Shown: positions 9,421 to 51,689, numbered from the stretch's first letter. The stretch is DNA of 64,000 bases from an uncultured Verrucomicrobiae bacterium (GCA_963812605.1 CAWEWF010000001.1:128001-192000), one strand, 5' to 3'. A program made the numbers and translations. Notes: generated by a model not told the origin, from the sequence alone.

Positions 9421-9497
<77 letters not shown>

Positions 9498-9546: not shown

Positions 9547-9570
9547 GTGTTGCAATGCTTTGTTGCAATG
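9547..9570 (+). repeat. Candidate integrase arm-type site pair, island 1 left end
   Basis: GTGTTGCAATGCTTTGTTGCAATG (TGTTGCAATG twice, 13-bp period); 23/24 identical copy at 36823-36846. Confidence 0.75.
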
Positions 9571-9588
9571 GATAGGATGTTTTTCGTC

Positions 9589-10752
9589 ATGAAAGCCACC
9601 CCAACGACACGCAAGCATCAAAAACTCGTTCATGTTGGCGACTGCCTTTATCGTTCAAGCCGCACCGACGTTTACTATGCGATTTTCCAGCGCGATGGCA
9701 AGCAAGTCAAGCGCAGCCTCAAGACGACCGACCCCGAACTTGCAAAGCGTCGGCGGGAAGTACATCGCCAGAAGGTTGAGCGGCTGAACAGCGACAGCGC
9801 CAAAAACCTGCCGTTTGCCGAATACGACGCTAAGACCAGGGAATTGATCGGTGGGCTTGCAAAGCGATGGATTGAGATTGCCGGCGGCACGATGGAAGCA
9901 AGCAGCCGCGACCGAATGCTTGGCGTGATTAGAAACCTCAACCAACACTTCAGCGGATTGACCGTCCGCAACGTCAACTTGCGCACGTTGGAGCAGTGGG
10001 CAACGGCCCGCCGGGATACCTGCTCCGCCCGCACGTTCAACTACGAACTCGAAACCCTGCGGCGCATCTTGGACTACGGCGCGGAACATGGCATTCTCAT
10101 GGAGAATCCCGCCCGCAAGATCAAACGATGCAAACCTCATAAGAAGCCGATCACCATCCCAACGAAAGAACAATTCCGCAAGATGCTGGATGCCATGCGC
10201 GATAATGGCGGGAAAGCTTCGGCGGACCTGGCCGAAATGCTGGCATACTCCGGGTGCCGCAAGGGGGAGATCGTCGGCGATGCCAAATACTCCAAACCGC
10301 CGATGTTCTGGCGCGATGCGGACTTCGAATTGAAAGTGTTCACTATTACGCGGTCAAAGAACCACGAGCCGCGCACCGTGCCGCTTTTCCCAGCGATGGA
10401 GAATTTCTTGCGGGGGCTACAGGCACGCCGGCCGGCGCCGCCGAAACCAGACGAGCGCATTATCCCGATAGATTCCGCCAAGAAAGCCATCGAGAGCGCC
10501 TGCAAGAAGCTGGGGCTGCCGCAATACGGGCACCACACCTGCCGACACTTCTTTTGTTCCAATGCCATTGAGGCGGGGATTGACTTCAAAGTCATCGCGA
10601 GTTGGTTGGGCCACAAAGACGGTGGCGTCCTGGTCGCCCGCACGTATGGCCATCTGCGCAACGAACACAGCGCAGCGATGGCCAAGCGCATGAACTGGGG
10701 CGCATCCAAAGCCGAACCCGCCAACGTCGTGCCGATGGTGGCGAAGGCGTAA
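9589..10752 (+). CDS. Tyrosine recombinase/integrase
   Basis: Catalytic set visible: SGCRKGEI (R), HTCRH (HxxR), WLGH, TYGH (Y); adjacent to the tRNA att. Confidence 0.95.
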   Translation: MKATPTTRKHQKLVHVGDCLYRSSRTDVYYAIFQRDGKQVKRSLKTTDPELAKRRREVHRQKVERLNSDSAKNLPFAEYDAKTRELIGGLAKRWIEIAGGTMEASSRDRMLGVIRNLNQHFSGLTVRNVNLRTLEQWATARRDTCSARTFNYELETLRRILDYGAEHGILMENPARKIKRCKPHKKPITIPTKEQFRKMLDAMRDNGGKASADLAEMLAYSGCRKGEIVGDAKYSKPPMFWRDADFELKVFTITRSKNHEPRTVPLFPAMENFLRGLQARRPAPPKPDERIIPIDSAKKAIESACKKLGLPQYGHHTCRHFFCSNAIEAGIDFKVIASWLGHKDGGVLVARTYGHLRNEHSAAMAKRMNWGASKAEPANVVPMVAKA

Positions 10753-18896: not shown

Positions 18897-19641
18897 ATGT
18901 CTTCAAAGAAGAGAACTGGACGGACATTCACAGAAGCCGAGTTCGTCAAGCTCTTCCAAGAGGTGCGACAGGACATCAACGCTTTGCTGCTCCACGATGA
19001 AGTATACTCCGGCGTCATCGAACACTTGAAACGGTATCCGCGTGTTCTTCACAATTTCCCGGCGGTTTTCGGGACGTTCCTGACAGCGGCGCGGACAGAC
19101 ATGATCATCCGACTCGGCCGCATCTATGACCCGGAAGGCACTGGACACGAATCCTGCACGTTGGCGCGGAGTCTCCAGGTGCTACGTGACAGCCCAAGTT
19201 TTTTCACTGATGCGGCCATCACCGCCCGGGCTGAGCGAGGCATACCGAAGGTCCAATCCGGGCTGCCTGCGCTTCCATCGCCTCGACAGCGGACGGGTCA
19301 CGAAGGATTTGGGGCAAATTGAGCGCAGCCGGAAACGTTTGATTAAACTGCGCCACAAACTCTACGCCCACAAAGACCTCGATACGATCCTTTCCGGCAA
19401 ACGGGACGGCTTTCTGGACTCGCACGGCGAGGTCCGCGCTCTCATCGAGCTGGCGCACGACATCTGGAACTATTACTCACTCATCTGGAATGCTTCCACG
19501 CACTCTGACAAGACCATTGGCGCTGACGATTACCGGTGGCTTTTTGAGTGTCTTCGTCGGGGATTGAAAACCAAGTCGCTTGCTGACCGTTTCCAGTTTG
19601 AACGAATCCAGAAGCGACACAAGCGAAGGAGCAAATCGTGA
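18897..19641 (+). CDS. HEPN AbiU2-like protein (one frameshift near 19230)
   Basis: Two ORFs join if one G is removed. MIIRLGRIYD...TL and LIKLRHKLYAHKD (R-x5-H) follow the AbiU2-type HEPN pattern. Confidence 0.65.
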
Positions 19642-20451: not shown

Positions 20452-23400
20452 TTAAGAATTGGATGATACTCCATTTCGGTCGCATCCATCAACGCAAACA
20501 CGGTCAAGTTGTTGGGATGCTCGCTGGTGATTGCCCAACGCGCGACGCAGTACATCGGCTCGTCCCGGTGGCAGTCCCGCGAACGCCTCGCAGATTTGGA
20601 GAATGTGCTCTTCGTACACAACCATTCCGTAGGTGCTTTTCAAGCATCCCGATAATGACGGATGCGGGTAGATGGTTGACTCCAACCCCTGATAACGACG
20701 CGTGAAGTGTTGTTTCTTGTTTTCGTTCGCGGCACCGGGACGAATCACGCTGACGATAGCGATCAGCCCGTCGATCTGGTGCACATTGCACATCCGGCAC
20801 AATGAGAGCATCGCAGGACTCTCGATGTGATGCACAGCCCGTGCGCCACCGTCCGCGATCATCTCCCACACGGCTTGATCCTCCCACGGCTCAAGACCGC
20901 TAAGGTCAACGGCGATCCCCCGCGAGGCCAGCGACTGTCGGGTGTCTCGCATCGCGGCCAGTCCGCCCTGCGCAAGGATGTCGATCTTGACCAACCCGAT
21001 TGATTCGACCGCATCCATATCGAAATGCGTGGTCGGGTAGCCTTTGTTCGACTCGAAGCACGGCACCAGGTCGGTCATCGGGACACTCGACAGCACGAGG
21101 CCGCACGGGTGCATTTTTGGATAACGCGGGAATCCGTCGAGAAACTGCGCCATCTGCAACGCGGACTTGTAAGGTTCCTCGTTGACTGGCAGATCCCGGA
21201 CCTCCTGTGTTTGTGCGACAGCCTCGACGAGATCGCGGGCCGATGCGTTCGGAATCTTTTCAGTAAATCGTCGCACTTGGTATTCTGATACCCCAAGCAC
21301 TTTGGCGACCTCCGCGAAGGCGCTACGGGCTTGAAAAGTTGAGAGGCCACCAACAACAGCCGTGTGGGCTGTCCCATAACGCTCGAAGATCAGGTCAACG
21401 ACATCATCCTTCCGGTCATGAGCGAAATCCAAGTCGATGTCCGGCAACTTGTTCAGCGCCATCCGATCCTTGTTGAGGAAGCGGCGGAAGTAGAGATCGA
21501 AGCGGATTGGGCAGACATCGCTGATCCGGAGGCAATAGCAGACGAGCGAGTCGGCAGCGCTACCACGAGTGATCCATTCGATGCCGCGTCGTCGGCACTC
21601 CTGCAGGAAGTCCCAGACGACAAGGAAATACTCCTCGTAGCCGACCTCGGCGATGATAGTCAGCTCCTCCTCGAGCTGTGACAACACCTGGCCTTCGCGG
21701 TGCGGGTACCGTTGCCGCAGCCCGTCCAGGACCAACTTCCGCAGAAACAACCGCGGTGTCGATCCATCCGGCGGTTTGAACGAAGGGAAGTGCAGTTGTC
21801 CGAAATCGAAATCAAAGGAACAGCGCTCAGCGATTTCGGTGGTTCGGGCCAGCACATCGTCGCGACCGCAGTAGACCTCGCGCACCTCGGCTGCCGTAAG
21901 GAAATGAAAGTCACCGTCGAGGCGCTTATCGGGATGCGCCTGCCGCAGCAGCGTCAGTGTGCGGACGCTCTGCACGACATCATATTTCCAGCGGTCTGCC
22001 GGCTCGGCATGGTGGATCGCGGGTAACGCGACATCAGCCGCGTTGTAGAATCGTTGCGGGAAATGACGCTCAAGTAATTTATCCTGACTGACTGCGATTA
22101 AGCCGGCTGTGTCGTGCTCCAGAAGCGTCTCAGGGCGAGTCAGAATCCGGCACAGATTCCGGTATCCCGTCGTGTTCTGGACAAAGAGCAGTAATGGCAA
22201 GCGACCTCTACGAATCTCCGCACCAATGATCGGCCTGATGGCCGCCGCCTTTGCGGCGGTTGCGAACTCGACGGCCCCGTGCAGATTGTCGGTATCGGTA
22301 ATGGCGACGGCGGGGAGATGCCGGTGGACGGCGAGATCGACGATGGCCTGGATGGACAAGGTCGAATTCAGGAAGGAATAGTAACTGTGGACATTCAGGG
22401 GGACGTATTGGGTCGTGGTTGGACGAGGACCGGTTCGTTTGGCTGCAACTGAAGAAACCGTCTGTGGCTGCTTCAATTGGCGCTTGAGTAGCAAATCATG
22501 GCCGCGCATTACAACCGAACGCCCGTGACTACCGCGAAGTTCATCGATCACCCGCGATAAGTGACGACGTGCCTCGTGTTGCTGGGTGTCCGTATCCAGC
22601 GGTAGTTCTGTGCGAACGAAGCCCTCATAGAGATTCGAGAACTTCAACGATACCAGCCGCAAGCTGACGCGCCGCTTCCACGCCTGCCTGAGCATGGGTC
22701 GAAATCGCGAATAAAGGTCCGTTTCAAGATCCGTGGGTTCCGCAAGGCTTTCACTGCGCTGATCCTCGGCCATGTCGTTGTAGCGCACTTTGACTGTCAC
22801 TGTCCGGACGCTCATGCCATCTTCGCGTACCTTGGCCATGAGCCCATCTGCCATCCGTCGGAGCGTCGCCTCGATGAACTCCTCGTTCGTCGTGTCCTCG
22901 GCAAAAGTCTCCTGTTGGCCGTAGGACTTGGCAGGTGCGGCTTCGCGTATGACGGGCCGATCGTCGCGCCCATTGGCGAATTCTCTGATTTGCAGGGCCC
23001 CACGACCAAGGAGCATCGCCAGCAAATCGACCGGCGTGGCGGCGATTTGTCCGACGCGCGCCAGACCAGCGGTGTTCAGTCGCTCAGCAGTCTTCGGTCC
23101 GATGCCCGGTAGCCAGCGATTGGCTAGTGGATGCAAGAAGTTTATCTCATGTCCGCGTGGGACCATCGTGAACGCGGCCGGCTTGTTTAGCTTCGACGCG
23201 ATCTGGCTGATCAATTTGTTGCTGCCGATACCTTCGCTGACAGTAATCTTGAGGGATTGATGTATAGCAGTTCGGAGCGTCTGCGCAATGTCGGTGGGGG
23301 ATTTCCTCGCGCCGGTCAAGTCGAGGTAGCCCTCATCAATTGAGCCGACTTCGACATCGGGCGTGAAGTCGTGAGCGTATGAAAACATCCAGCGGGAGAA

Positions 23401-23643
23401 CCGTTCGTACTTGTCGTAATCGCCGGGGAGGACGATCAACCTCGGACACAATCTGCGGGCGCGCACTGTCGGCATTGGGGTGAAAACTCCGAATTTCCGC
23501 GCTTCGTAGGATGCTGAAGCGATGATGCCGCGTTTTTCCCCGCCGACCGCGATGGCCTTACCACGCAGACGAGAATCGGAGGCTTGCTCCACCGACGCGA
23601 AAAAAGCATCGGCATCGAGATGGACGATGGCTCGGGATGACAT
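20452..23643 (-). CDS. Fusion of Y-family DNA polymerase (DinB/Pol IV-like) and DnaE (PHP plus Pol III alpha), C-terminally truncated
   Basis: One 1063-aa ORF. PolY: HLDADAFFASVE, SYEAR, SIDEGYLD. PHP: NVHSYYSF, AITD. DnaE: RGSAADS, PDIDLDF, HPCG, KIDIL. Homology ends after RADVLRRALG (about 20535). Confidence 0.93.
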   Translation of the reverse strand: MSSRAIVHLDADAFFASVEQASDSRLRGKAIAVGGEKRGIIASASYEARKFGVFTPMPTVRARRLCPRLIVLPGDYDKYERFSRWMFSYAHDFTPDVEVGSIDEGYLDLTGARKSPTDIAQTLRTAIHQSLKITVSEGIGSNKLISQIASKLNKPAAFTMVPRGHEINFLHPLANRWLPGIGPKTAERLNTAGLARVGQIAATPVDLLAMLLGRGALQIREFANGRDDRPVIREAAPAKSYGQQETFAEDTTNEEFIEATLRRMADGLMAKVREDGMSVRTVTVKVRYNDMAEDQRSESLAEPTDLETDLYSRFRPMLRQAWKRRVSLRLVSLKFSNLYEGFVRTELPLDTDTQQHEARRHLSRVIDELRGSHGRSVVMRGHDLLLKRQLKQPQTVSSVAAKRTGPRPTTTQYVPLNVHSYYSFLNSTLSIQAIVDLAVHRHLPAVAITDTDNLHGAVEFATAAKAAAIRPIIGAEIRRGRLPLLLFVQNTTGYRNLCRILTRPETLLEHDTAGLIAVSQDKLLERHFPQRFYNAADVALPAIHHAEPADRWKYDVVQSVRTLTLLRQAHPDKRLDGDFHFLTAAEVREVYCGRDDVLARTTEIAERCSFDFDFGQLHFPSFKPPDGSTPRLFLRKLVLDGLRQRYPHREGQVLSQLEEELTIIAEVGYEEYFLVVWDFLQECRRRGIEWITRGSAADSLVCYCLRISDVCPIRFDLYFRRFLNKDRMALNKLPDIDLDFAHDRKDDVVDLIFERYGTAHTAVVGGLSTFQARSAFAEVAKVLGVSEYQVRRFTEKIPNASARDLVEAVAQTQEVRDLPVNEEPYKSALQMAQFLDGFPRYPKMHPCGLVLSSVPMTDLVPCFESNKGYPTTHFDMDAVESIGLVKIDILAQGGLAAMRDTRQSLASRGIAVDLSGLEPWEDQAVWEMIADGGARAVHHIESPAMLSLCRMCNVHQIDGLIAIVSVIRPGAANENKKQHFTRRYQGLESTIYPHPSLSGCLKSTYGMVVYEEHILQICEAFAGLPPGRADVLRRALGNHQRASQQLDRVCVDGCDRNGVSSNS

Positions 23644-23749
23644 CTGCCTCCAGTCCGCCTCCTTCGTCGTCCCCGTTCTCGGGATGTTGTGGGCCGGTTA
23701 AGGCAAGGAGGTAGGACCGACAACGAGGACGACGGTGAAGGCAAATTGA

Positions 23750-24367
23750 TTATTTTCGTTTGCGCATCAAGGCCACCATCACCCCTTGGATGACCAGTTC
23801 AGTCGCGGGAATCAATTTGGGGTATTTGGGGTTCTCGGCTTTCAAGTACGGCTTCCCGCGTTCCGTGAGGAAAGTCTTCAAGGTGCTTTCGTTGTCAATC
23901 AGTGCCGCAACCGTGTCCCCGGGGCGGGGCTCTAAACCATGTTCGAAGACCGCTACATCCCCGTCGACAATGTATTTACCGATCATCGAATCGCCCCGGA
24001 CGCGGAGGGCAAAGGTGCGGGCCGTTGGACGGATGCCTAAAGTCGCGACATCGACGCTGACGCAACCCTCCGCCTCTTGCTTCTGTTCCTCGGCGAAGCC
24101 GGCAGGAATCGATCCGAAAAGGGGAATGTCAACGACTTGGCTACGAAGTTTGTCCAGCGGGGACACAAGATGCAAAGAACGGTCGCGTCCAGGAAGGCGT
24201 TTAAGTTCGCCCTTAGAGATCAATACCCGGATATGGTCTACGGCTGCGGTGACGCTGCGGAAACGGAAATGTCGCGCAATCTCCCGCAGGCTCGGGGTTT
24301 CCCCTGTCGTCTTGTGATGGAAACGGATAAACGCTAGCACCTGTTTTTGACGCTTGGTTAATTCCAT
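23750..24367 (-). CDS. lexA: LexA family repressor
   Basis: LTKRQ, TPSLREIA wHTH, IPAG cleavage site, VRGDSM (Ser), TLKTF (Lys). Confidence 0.93.
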   Translation of the reverse strand: MELTKRQKQVLAFIRFHHKTTGETPSLREIARHFRFRSVTAAVDHIRVLISKGELKRLPGRDRSLHLVSPLDKLRSQVVDIPLFGSIPAGFAEEQKQEAEGCVSVDVATLGIRPTARTFALRVRGDSMIGKYIVDGDVAVFEHGLEPRPGDTVAALIDNESTLKTFLTERGKPYLKAENPKYPKLIPATELVIQGVMVALMRKRK

Positions 24368-24403
24368 ACTGTACACTGTACAGTTATCCGATTAGGGTGT
24401 CAA
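24368..24403 (-). promoter_or_regulatory. Sigma70 promoter of leaderless lexA with overlapping palindromic operator
   Basis: Minus strand reads TTGACA (24403-24398), 17 bp, TACAGT (24380-24375), 7 nt, ATG. Palindrome ACTGTACA-C-TGTACAGT at 24368-24384. Confidence 0.8.
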
Positions 24404-24442
24404 TAGGCTCGAATGGACTGAGGCAATTAGTAAAATGGTTGT

Positions 24443-25201
24443 ATGACCGGTAGAGAAACATCAGCGCACGCCACGCTCAAGAAACTGGCCCTGAATTGGG
24501 CGCAACGGCAAGGGTACCCCATCTGCGGACACGAGATCCGTCTCCCCCACTCCAACTACAGCGCCGATGTTGTGGCATACAGGCCAGCGACCGAGCGTCT
24601 CCCGCTGTCTGGGAACGGAAAGACACCGTCCCGGTTGGTTCGCCAACCGGTTGTGGGAGCTACTGCGGTATTCGAGTGCAAACAAGCGAGAGCTGATTTC
24701 CTGAAGGACTCGCACAACACTGCCGAGACAGCGCGACGGTTGCAGGCGTTCGACGAACGACGGCGGACGTTGGAGCGATTGTTGGGGATGCACCAGCCTT
24801 CCTTGCGGAAGGGCGAGTCGCTGTTTGCCGAATACGACGCCATCGACATTTCCAATTTCGAGCATAAGACCTACCGTAAGGTGGTTCGGGAGATCTCGAT
24901 TCTGCAGGCTCGACTCTATGGCAAGACCAAGTTCGACAAAGTTGCACGGTACAAGTGTGCGAACCTTTGCTACCTGGTGGTCGAGGAGGGAATCCTCCAG
25001 GTTCACGAAGTACCGTTGGATTGGGGTTTGCTGGTTCGGCGGGACGAAGAACTGCTGTTGAAGAGAATGCCGGTGTGGCAGGATGTGCCAGTCCCGACAC
25101 GATTGGAACTGCTGCAGCGAATCGCGCATACCGCAACACGGCGTCTGAATCGGGTCTCGGGCCAGTCAGACGAAAATTCAGTGGACGAGTTGTCTGCTTG
25201 A
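24443..25201 (+). CDS. MmcB-like PD-(D/E)xK nuclease-fold protein
   Basis: HEIRLP...ADVVAY...FECKQARADFLKD...CYLVV...VPLDWGLL; divergent from lexA; TAAAAT lies 6 nt before the ATG. Confidence 0.6.
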   Translation: MTGRETSAHATLKKLALNWAQRQGYPICGHEIRLPHSNYSADVVAYRPATERLPLSGNGKTPSRLVRQPVVGATAVFECKQARADFLKDSHNTAETARRLQAFDERRRTLERLLGMHQPSLRKGESLFAEYDAIDISNFEHKTYRKVVREISILQARLYGKTKFDKVARYKCANLCYLVVEEGILQVHEVPLDWGLLVRRDEELLLKRMPVWQDVPVPTRLELLQRIAHTATRRLNRVSGQSDENSVDELSA

Positions 25202-25401
25202 AATTCGTCGTTGGTAGGACTACACCCTCAAAATATCGGAGCACCTGTCTCGGTTGTGGGAAAAACTACACGGACACAGTGGCGTGGTTTGCCGAACACT
25301 GGCGGAGTTGTTCTGCTTGCGGGGCGGTAATTGACCTCAGACCGCTATTGGCGCAGATCGAGGAGATGAGACGGCCATTCGTGAAAGCGGATTCAGGCTA
25401 G
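25198..25401 (+). CDS. Small zinc-ribbon protein
   Basis: TTG start overlaps the upstream stop; CLGC...VAWF...CSACGAVID; similar to 35892-36083. Confidence 0.5.
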   Translation: MKFVVGRTTPSKYRSTCLGCGKNYTDTVAWFAEHWRSCSACGAVIDLRPLLAQIEEMRRPFVKADSG

Positions 25402-25526
25402 GGGGCTTTGCGCTTCTTCTTCGGCGGCGGTTTGCCCTTGAGAATCTTATGGGTAATCTTGCCGCTAGAGTGGACAGTCGCTTCAACCCAGACCTTTTTC
25501 AGCTTCGGCTTGATAGGCGCTATCAT
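25398..25526 (-). CDS. 42-aa Lys/Pro-rich small protein
   Basis: MIAPIKPKLKKVWVEATVHSSGKITHKILKGKPPPKKKRKAP; GGAGG immediately upstream; below the ORF-track size cut-off. Confidence 0.4.
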   Translation of the reverse strand: MIAPIKPKLKKVWVEATVHSSGKITHKILKGKPPPKKKRKAP

Positions 25527-25644
25527 CCCTCCGATTTACCCCTACGGGGCGGAGCCGTCAAGACCGGCAAAGAATTTCAAATTACGACACTACCCGCTTC
25601 TTTGATGGCTTGAATTAATTCGTTGCTGGGACAAAACTGGATGC

Positions 25645-26319
25645 ATGTGCGGCCGCTACACGCTGTCAACCGATCTCAAAATAATCGCCAAGCGTTTCGC
25701 TGCGACGGTCGCAGACGAGATTCCATCGGTTGTGCAACGTTACAACATCGCACCCACGCAAAAAGTGATTGTGGTTAGCGACGGCGGTCAGCGTGTCATT
25801 AAACAGATGCGCTGGGGACTGATTCCGTCCTGGGCCAAAGACGCCAGCATCGGCAACCGGATGATTAACGCACGAGCCGAGACTCTCGCCGAGAAGCCCG
25901 CGTTTCGCGCCGCGCTGAAAAAACGCCGTTGCATCATTCCGGCGGACGGATTCTACGAGTGGCAGAAACTTGGCGAGGGGAAGCAGCCCCTTCGCATCGT
26001 TCTGAAGAGCCGGGAGCCGTTCGGATTCGCCGGGTTGTGGGAGCACTGGAAGTCGCCAGAAGGTGAGGAGGTCCTGAGTTGCACTATCATCACGACAGCA
26101 GCAAACGAGCTACTAAAAGCCGTTCATGAGCGGATGCCGGTGATTTTGACGCGGGACGCTGAGGCCGCGTGGCTCGACCCGAAGACACAAGACCCTGAGA
26201 GGTTGCTGCCACTGCTGAGGCAGTATCCAGCCGAAGAAATGGAGTTTTACAAGGTGTCCCGTGATGTAAATTCGCCAGCCATTGACGAAGCGAGCAACAT
26301 CGAGCCGCTTGCGGAGTGA
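25645..26319 (+). CDS. SOS response-associated peptidase (SRAP, YedK/HMCES family)
   Basis: N-terminal MCGRY; RYNIAPTQ, RWGLIPSW, INARAET, GFYEW, HERMP. Confidence 0.95.
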   Translation: MCGRYTLSTDLKIIAKRFAATVADEIPSVVQRYNIAPTQKVIVVSDGGQRVIKQMRWGLIPSWAKDASIGNRMINARAETLAEKPAFRAALKKRRCIIPADGFYEWQKLGEGKQPLRIVLKSREPFGFAGLWEHWKSPEGEEVLSCTIITTAANELLKAVHERMPVILTRDAEAAWLDPKTQDPERLLPLLRQYPAEEMEFYKVSRDVNSPAIDEASNIEPLAE

Positions 26320-36974: not shown

Positions 36975-37014
<40 letters not shown>

Positions 37015-37101: not shown

Positions 37102-37230
37102 GTGAAGCCCGGAACTGTCAAACGCGGGGACTGGAAACAGGCGTTAAAGCGCGTCGGGGACAACCTGTATCGTTCCGACGCGACTGAAATCTACTATGCC
37201 ATCTTCAAGCGGAACGGCAAGCAGATACCC
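37102..37230 (+). pseudogene. Integrase N-terminal remnant
   Basis: LKRVGDNLYRSDATEIYYAIFKRNGKQI aligns with LVHVGDCLYRSSRTDVYYAIFQRDGKQV of the intact integrase, then homology stops. Confidence 0.85.
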
Positions 37231-37428
37231 AAGCTGGATCTCCTCGGCGGTCCGCGCGTTGGCGATGGCTGCTCGCCCACCGCGTCCACCGGCCGTTTGT
37301 CCTTCTTGGTCATCCCGGCCACGAACCGCCTGCTGGCCGCATTCGGGACCGGAATCGAGGTGTCGCCAGACTGAGGGGCACGGATTCAAATTGCGCGGCG
37401 ATGCGGGGGCGGATTGTCCAAGGCGGAA

Positions 37429-51427: not shown

Positions 51428-51466
<39 letters not shown>

Positions 51467-51689
51467 CCACTTATATTTTGCTGGCATGAACAACCATTGC
51501 GCTTGCTGTATTTTATGTCCGCACTGGTTTATTGCAATGGCTGGGGTGTTTTTCACCATGAAAGTCACCCCAACGACCCACAAACATCGAAACTCGTCCA
51601 TTGTTGGCGACTGTCTCGATCGTTCAAACCGCACCGACTTTTACCGTGCGATTTTCCAACGCGACGGCAAGCAAGCCAAGCGCAGCCTC
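51467..51689 (+). pseudogene. Left-end relic of a third, island-1-like element with integrase fragment (ATG 51558)
   Basis: 223 bp colinear with 9498-9720; MKVTPTTHKH...VGDCLDRSNRTDFYRAIFQRDGKQAKRSL; ends at the stop codon of the next gene. Confidence 0.88.

Follow-up and report, generated by a model that had tools for sequence, protein, structure and literature searches.

A mobile, partly decayed second copy of a verrucomicrobial lexA–dinB::dnaE locus on a tRNA-Arg integrative island

Introduction

A block of genes at positions 20,452-26,319 of a 64,000-nt stretch of DNA from the genome of an uncultured soil Verrucomicrobiae bacterium (the whole stretch being referred to below as the window) combines lexA, a gene for a polymerase in which DinB and DnaE parts are joined in one chain, a gene for a protein with a PD-(D/E)xK nuclease fold, a Zn-ribbon open reading frame (ORF) and a gene of the SRAP family. 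The question raised by this locus is whether these genes form a self-contained mobile SOS module, as had been proposed from the sequence alone (hereafter the sequence-only reading), or whether a conserved core has here been joined by lineage-specific additions and has begun to decay. The genes, gaps and strands on which the proposal was built were all recovered where it had placed them, using an ORF map together with Pfam and NCBIfam scans. Comparison with related loci shows an SOS locus of a form specific to one clade, present here as a mobile copy that has diverged and in part decayed, and of which only the lexA-fusion core is broadly conserved; the analysis separates this conserved unit (lexA and DinB::DnaE, with more than 1600 proteins) from the lineage-specific additions. 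The explanation favoured here, with a probability of roughly 0.6, is that the block at 20531-26310 was acquired horizontally as a second copy of a lineage-specific verrucomicrobial SOS locus, is carried on an island at a tRNA-Arg gene and has partly decayed.

The lexA and DinB::DnaE core

The polymerase is recognised as a fusion by both domain collections, Pfam placing IMS and IMS_C over residues 9-338 and PHP, DNA_pol3_alpha and the finger domain over residues 416-1056, and NCBIfam placing DinB over residues 2-390, followed by a short linker and DnaE-type PHP, palm and finger regions over residues 412-1061. The Y-family half scores 257.3 bits against PRK02406 (cut-off 256) and aligns to the solved Pol IV 7yll (E 1e-62), with the DxDxFFASVE and SIDE motifs kept. 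The fusion also matches NF004225 (‘error-prone DNA polymerase’) with E 6e-119 and 399 bits, which is under the cut-off of 939 bits, and for the DnaE half the DnaE1 models score slightly above NF004225. Alignment of the DnaE half of a paralogue from the same genome (C6, described below) with Thermus Pol III alpha showed that the PDIDxDF motif and a later aspartate, which we take to be the catalytic residues, are retained.

The fusion family comprises at least 1619 proteins (E <= 0.001 among 7999 candidates) and, where a source carries a name, it is Verrucomicrobia or Verrucomicrobiota. Gene neighbourhoods were compared for the best 80 of 291 species-level fusion loci, with a reach of 10 kb. One of the species-level loci (L064) carries the label Pedosphaera parvula Ellin514. 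In 64 of the 80 loci a co-oriented lexA gene immediately precedes the fusion gene; as 10 of the 16 loci without a lexA call have less than 700 nt of upstream sequence, this amounts to 64 of 70 assessable loci. The window shows the same arrangement, with lexA upstream across a gap of 106 bp. The window LexA scores 138.9 bits against TIGR00498 (cut-off 110.95), and in an alignment of nine cassette LexAs (those of the window, of locus L184 and of seven others) A89-G90, S127 and K164 are invariant in all nine, presumably as the cleavage site and the catalytic dyad, respectively; a GTG at 24376 offers an alternative start. The core of the locus is an operon of lexA and dinB::dnaE conserved across the phylum; judging from the LexA family, DNA damage would lead to RecA-stimulated self-cleavage of LexA and to release of the operon. 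A further lexA-like locus, the third in this genome, was noted at C6:369727-370276 (L013), where the DNA-binding and peptidase parts match in different frames; either lexA has suffered a frameshift there or two genes are present.

A diverged second copy on an integrative island

On contig C6 the same genome holds a chromosomal-looking copy of the locus (the C6 copy), in which the fusion is 1382 aa long, carries HHH_6 and is 88% identical to that of the island, with lexA, the nuclease and SRAP being 83%, 82% and 71% identical, respectively. In this copy three ORFs for sensor kinases or response regulators intervene before SRAP, which is located 3.9 kb further on. The DNA of the island block shares 81% identity with C6, 84% with locus L014 and 89% with L184; as it is nearer to L014 and L184 than to C6, it is not a recent internal duplicate. 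Elsewhere in the genome, C8:107194-107611 (L012:7194-7608) contains the C-terminus of a nuclease and the N-terminus of an SRAP, about 50 nt apart, a third and decayed nuclease-SRAP pair which is adjoined by PDDEXK_1-like and AAA_25 ORFs.

The sequence-only reading had placed the cassette inside an integrative island, and this is borne out by an integrase gene adjoining a tRNA-Arg gene and by direct repeats of part of that tRNA gene which bound the element (Table 1). Island 1, which contains the SOS cassette, is 27.5 kb long and has an intact integrase, and the three tRNA-derived repeats mark a tandem array of elements. As in other tRNA-integrating genomic islands that form tandem arrays, an integrase by a tRNA gene, att-like direct repeats and accessory cargo are found together; the difference is that the repeat here corresponds to the 5' portion of the tRNA. 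The islands therefore lie in tandem on the 5' side of the tRNA, which is the less usual orientation, and must supply the tRNA promoter. Other cargo of island 1 includes type I restriction-modification genes and AbiU2. The AbiU2 gene adjoins the point at which the polymerase is truncated, and its split into two frames is probably due to a frameshift.

One sign of decay is seen in the polymerase. Its 12 closest relatives (P0002-P0013) are 74-88% identical, 1376-1393 aa long and carry HHH_6, which the window fusion lacks. Residues 1-1037 match these relatives; the protein departs from them right after ...VLRRALG and reaches a stop 26 residues on, these final residues (20452-20530) being encoded by unrelated DNA. 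In the genome as assembled, DNA homology to full-length copies begins at 20531. About 344 C-terminal residues, including the HhH domain and everything past the finger domain, are gone, and since they are missing the bypass arm of the island copy is probably crippled. The bypass step that had been ascribed to the island polymerase does not sit well with this loss, nor with the intact copy that the chromosome keeps and which would probably perform bypass. A second truncated fusion, of 897 aa and cut within the palm domain, was found in a metagenome contig (L203, 6556-9249); its truncation is independent of that in the window, the cassette is of the same lexA/nuclease type, and DUF72 occupies the position of SRAP.

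A second lesion separates the nuclease gene from SRAP in the form of a 383-bp insert, which is present in the genome as a single copy (as assembled) and is absent from all of the fetched loci except that of the same-genus genome G412. A repeated mobile element was considered as its source and ruled out on these grounds. The sequence-only reading had counted a Zn-ribbon gene as a member of the module, and this part of it falls with the insert, to which the Zn-ribbon ORF belongs as a start-less fragment. Homology to the 63-aa protein P0241 (77% identical) sets in at the insert boundary, which coincides with residue 10, and no start codon is available other than a TTG that overlaps the stop codon of the nuclease gene, whereas P0241 and the G412 homolog have an ATG. 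In G412 the Zn-ribbon gene adjoins an SRAP. The 42-aa ORF that shares the insert matches no family and occurs alone in contig L279.

Table 1. Features of the window that bear on the SOS cassette and the island around it (positions counted from the first nucleotide of the window).
Feature	Position	Strand	Basis or remark
tRNA-Arg(TCT)	9421-9497	-	ARAGORN
att-like repeat 1, the 5' 40 nt of tRNA-Arg; left end of island	9458-9497	-	blastn
Tyrosine integrase of island 1	9547-10752	+	PF00589, E 3e-12
AbiU2 (HEPN), two overlapping frames	18897-19641	+	Profile positions 2-90 and 112-185
DinB::DnaE fusion, 1063 aa, 3'-truncated	20452-23643	-	Pfam and NCBIfam
Conserved long hairpin with CCUCCUUGCC loop, lexA-polymerase spacer	23665-23735	-	RNAalifold
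lexA, 205 aa from ATG	23750-24367	-	LexA_DNA_bind (PF01726) and Peptidase_S24 (PF00717)
Putative LexA operator, perfect 17-bp palindrome ACTGTACA-C-TGTACAGT (TGTAC-N3-GTACA)	24368-24384	.	Abuts lexA ATG
Promoter-like TTGACA-17-TACAGT, 10/12 matches	24375-24403	-	-10 within palindrome
PD-(D/E)xK nuclease-fold protein, 252 aa, unnamed verrucomicrobial family	24443-25201	+	
Zn-ribbon ORF, CxxC...CxxC	25198-25401	+	No native ATG
383-bp insert	25226-25608	.	Absent from 10/10 related cassette loci compared by DNA
42-aa basic, lysine-rich ORF	25398-25526	-	Conserved with Zn-ribbon gene beside SRAP in G412 (L274:5947-6063)
SRAP (YedK/HMCES type), 224 aa	25645-26319	+	PF02586, E 5e-83
att-like repeat 2, exact 40 bp; right end of island 1 and start of older element	36975-37014	+	blastn
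Integrase remnant after repeat 2	37138-37233		
att-like repeat 3, exact 39 bp	51428-51466	+	blastn
Integrase remnant after repeat 3	51528-51689		

The nuclease and SRAP genes

The nuclease ORF is divergent from lexA, with 75 bp between it and the lexA ATG, and its product had been described as an MmcB-like PD-(D/E)xK protein. It matches no Pfam or NCBIfam model; against PF06319 (MmcB-like) no hit was obtained at E <= 10, and a search of the genome with the PF06319 model found neither of the two nuclease copies at E <= 1. The family to which it belongs numbers 511 database proteins, and E31, D42, E78, C79 and K80 are invariant across 35 aligned members. When these members were scanned singly, weak matches to PF06319 were seen in 4 of 35 (best E 3e-4) and matches to CoiA_nuc in 10 of 35 (best E 0.026). 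Among solved chains the family profile retrieved 3dnx alone (E 8.5e-4), which we take to be a structure of the Pfam MmcB-like family. An alignment-based structural model with a pLDDT (predicted local distance difference test) of 83 was then compared with known structures, the single-sequence version (pLDDT 38.7) being unusable. Foldseek matched the model to 3dnx with E 2.5e-6, and VIA-align superposed all 146 of 146 residues with Z 16.7 and a root-mean-square deviation of 3.0; the runner-up has a score of 8.5 and is followed by restriction-endonuclease-like folds. The window protein differs from 3dnx (146 aa) by a helical insert of roughly 60-80 residues. In the part of PMC3045609 that deals with it, 3dnx is termed a PD-(D/E)XK structure. 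The term MmcB-like is thus right for the modelled fold and does not extend to membership of the Pfam family, because 3dnx is the best structural match but PF06319 gives no hit. The assignment of SRAP, a family whose members cross-link to abasic sites in single-stranded DNA and shield them, is straightforward, with 278 bits against a cut-off of 27.1, an N-terminal MCGRY and Cys2 present.

Whether these genes belong to the lexA-fusion locus was addressed from both sides. Within 10 kb of the fusion, the nuclease was found in 2 of the 80 loci (L014, where it is divergent as in the window, and L062, where it is directly downstream on the same strand), and SRAP likewise in 2 of 80 (L014 and L027). 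Of 401 genomes sampled across the phylum, 114 encode the nuclease family, mostly in a single copy; 60 of the corresponding loci were fetched, and within about 9.5 kb of the nuclease none of the 60 contains lexA, any DinB or DnaE part, SRAP or a Zn ribbon. The recurrent neighbours, none of which matched the lexA, polymerase or SRAP queries, include as the two commonest a protein of about 600 aa upstream in 7 loci, which by eye would be ribosomal protein S1 (repeated S1-like motifs), and a protein of about 340 aa downstream in about 10 loci. As the nuclease and SRAP are each near the fusion in only 2 of 80 loci and the nuclease-anchored count is 0 of 60, the five-gene module is an arrangement characteristic of a clade rather than a system that is conserved.

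Within a narrow clade the association is close. Metagenome contigs encoding close relatives of the nuclease were also compared (the best 80 of 306), and lexA is divergent from the nuclease in all nine contigs in which the latter is at least 68% identical and the upstream flank is long enough; it is absent from L194 (67% identical, 10-kb flank) and from L198, L199, L200 and L202 (55-62% identical, enough flank). Of 11 assessable contigs, 4 (L184-L187) have an SRAP start no more than about 50 nt past the end of the nuclease gene, and in a fifth, L192, a short fragment of SRAP follows after about 580 nt. In L254 (47% identity) lexA, the fusion and the nuclease form a single same-strand row. Of 17 other genomes of the genus that were searched at the DNA level, one (G409, 84% identity) has the block in contiguous form. 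G414 has the nuclease on one contig and the lexA-fusion pair on another, and across the genus stretches of SRAP DNA are scattered over several sites in each genome. The claim that the genes travel together can therefore be kept for lexA, the nuclease and SRAP inside the narrow clade, and the co-occurrence across genomes on which the sequence-only reading had staked itself fails outside it.

These counts lend themselves to an explanation in which, beyond lexA and the fusion, adjacency has no meaning, the nuclease being a housekeeping protein and SRAP a frequent mobile passenger that came to rest by lexA by chance in one lineage. The wide, mostly single-copy distribution of the nuclease, its recurrent neighbours, the 60 loci in which it stands apart from lexA, the fusion and SRAP, the separate contigs of G414 and the scattered SRAP DNA all point that way, as does the lack of a LexA-type palindrome upstream of the nuclease in 48 of 48 assessable unlinked loci of the family. 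We nevertheless consider chance adjacency unlikely, given that the nuclease has joined the lexA-fusion locus in two layouts, namely divergent and, in L062 and L254, as a third gene on the same strand. Moreover, a different nuclease, of the GIY-YIG type, is present near the fusion in 9 of the 80 loci and fills the divergent slot next to lexA in 7 of them; SRAP is near lexA also in L027; and neighbourhoods of SRAP, DinB and LexA are a recurrent theme already described in the sections of PMC3765255 on SRAP gene neighbourhoods. The recurrent recruitment of a nuclease, of whichever type, next to lexA is suggestive. Different lineages place different repair-type genes at the lexA-fusion locus, and in 21 of the 80 fusion loci DUF72 precedes lexA in the same orientation.

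The LexA operator and the weighing of explanations

The cassette had been said to bring its own repressor, and the window does encode a LexA with a perfect palindrome over its own promoter. Besides this palindrome, no site in the window matches TGTACNNNGTACA without a mismatch, and none in the genome matches the longer pattern perfectly. LexA would bind it and so cover the -10 element of the lexA promoter; because the -10 lies inside the palindrome, lexA is probably self-repressed and its mRNA leaderless or near-leaderless. On the other side, 58 nt separate the putative operator from the nuclease ATG, and the promoter scan gave no promoter for the nuclease gene; neither the incision step of the sequence-only reading nor LexA control of the nuclease-SRAP side is supported. 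The spacer between lexA and the polymerase contains a hairpin of about 18 bp common to seven cassettes, for which RNAalifold gives 24 pairs, 2 of them with compensatory changes, and which may serve as a control point for translation or processing between these cistrons.

The LexA motif of Verrucomicrobia reportedly described by Erill et al. in 2016 is TGTTC-N4-GAACA, and of the 64 loci that have lexA upstream of the fusion, 36 show palindromes of the TGTNC-N4-GNACA type (<= 2 mismatches) ahead of lexA. Definition of the host SOS regulon from this pattern was attempted and failed, the genome holding only 9 perfect TGTNC-N4-GNACA palindromes, few of them intergenic and none upstream of recA. In the cassettes related to that of the window, of which 10 loci were compared by DNA, the spacer of the operator has 4 bases in 9 of 10 (N4; C6, L014, L186, L187, L188, L191, L193 and L203, with L192 and L201 identical to L193 in the operator region), and has 3 (N3) only in the window and in L184. 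Between the window and L184 the LexA proteins are 98% identical, with shared wing substitutions (E55, R57-L58, D62 and L65-H66) that are absent from the seven other cassette LexAs aligned. The N3 spacer and the wing changes are either one inherited oddity or a case in which repressor and operator changed together.

On another reading the island would hold a working, self-contained SOS module, in which its LexA and the N3 operator form a private pair, insulated from an N4-binding host LexA, and drive the short polymerase, the nuclease and SRAP after damage. Restriction of the N3 spacer to two loci and of the wing substitutions to the same two LexAs would fit such a pair, as would the intact promoter and catalytic motifs and the existence of a second truncated fusion in L203. 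But the two N3 sequences are near-identical in this region and count as a single event, the island polymerase lacks the post-finger region that all 12 closest relatives keep, the Zn-ribbon ORF has no native start, and the split AbiU2 gene suggests a more general decay of the island. A working module of this kind is therefore improbable in our view. Bolder still, and slightly more doubtful, is the idea that an orthogonal LexA-operator pair (N3 and wing changes) lets a mobile element run its own damage-inducible cassette of short DinB-PHP-palm polymerase, MmcB-like nuclease and SRAP apart from the host SOS repressor, with a phylum-wide, LexA-controlled single-chain DinB::DnaE ‘mutasome’ that replaces ImuABC standing behind it.

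The favoured explanation, that of an acquired and partly decayed second copy, would accommodate these observations as follows. In one narrow clade the PD-(D/E)xK nuclease gene and then SRAP adjoin the conserved core, divergent from lexA. In the copy carried by the island, the polymerase has lost its C-terminal part and the insert, with its start-less Zn-ribbon fragment and the 42-aa ORF, has broken the nuclease-SRAP pair, and the island would contribute at most a second LexA, a DinB-type half-enzyme, a nuclease and an SRAP. What is observed here comprises the identities of the genes, the island and the duplicate locus, the truncation and insert, and how the genes are distributed among genomes; the regulation, the enzymatic roles and any loss of function are predictions. 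Several points weigh against this explanation. The loss of function of the truncated fusion is something that we infer from its sequence, and its DinB half, PHP, palm and finger regions are intact and its ORF open; the independently truncated fusion of L203 indicates that short forms may be tolerated or even used. The N3 operator occurs in L184 as well, and is therefore no private lesion of the island copy. Finally, the presence of the nuclease in the lexA-fusion operon in L062 and L254 argues for a real functional link that goes beyond hitch-hiking.

Comparison with known systems

The phylum-wide fused polymerase under LexA is the more interesting object to emerge from this analysis, with the contrast between N3 and N4 operators as a secondary question. 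The fusion would bring an inserter-type and an extender-type enzyme onto one chain under SOS control and would suit the study of hand-over between two translesion polymerases. The operator variants offer a natural experiment on the spacing specificity of LexA, and the island copy indicates that integrative elements can carry SOS loci along with their repressor, and that such loci can decay afterwards.

In Caulobacter, MmcB is presented, in the part of PMC9578287 devoted to it, as an SOS-regulated PD-(D/E)XK endonuclease and proposed partner of translesion polymerases on crosslinks. The window protein resembles it in its predicted PD-(D/E)xK fold and in adjoining an SOS repressor and a translesion polymerase, and differs in its lack of a PF06319 match and in its length of 252 aa with the helical insert, as against 146 aa for 3dnx.

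Neighbourhoods of SRAP, DinB and LexA, sometimes with a DnaE paralogue, were described by Aravind, Anand and Iyer in 2013, whose sections on SRAP (PMC3765255) also note Zn-ribbon-like proteins in SRAP-Ku neighbourhoods. As in the neighbourhoods presented there, SRAP in the window has LexA and polymerases of the DinB and DnaE types as neighbours. Here, however, DinB and DnaE form one polypeptide, SRAP stands behind the nuclease in a divergent unit outside the polymerase operon, and the whole lies on an integrative island and is partly decayed.

With the ImuA-ImuB-DnaE2 cassette the locus shares the linkage of lexA to a Y-family module and a C-family polymerase, the latter with its match below cut-off to the error-prone model NF004225. 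It differs in that its Y-family half keeps the catalytic carboxylates and matches DinB models, whereas ImuB is inactive. No ORF at 19638-27651 matches the RecA-like (ImuA) family, the search for imuA having been confined to that interval of the genome.

As regards the fusion itself, a literature search on Y-family/DnaE2 fusions in Verrucomicrobia returned nothing relevant. The main text of a 2026 paper in NAR on DnaE2B-PolY-RecA modules (PMC12926913), taken without its supplements, describes no covalent PolY-DnaE fusion, the word ‘fused’ there concerning other proteins, and the pertinent passages of PMC6511836 and PMC3919608 likewise describe none; a phylum-wide DinB::DnaE fusion under LexA was thus found in none of the literature searched. 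The DnaE2B-PolY-RecA modules, as set out in that main text, pair an active PolY with a DnaE2-type polymerase in genomes without imuA and imuB, and the present locus resembles them in coupling a predicted active Y-family polymerase to a DnaE-type one; the two polymerases are separate proteins there and are joined in one chain here.

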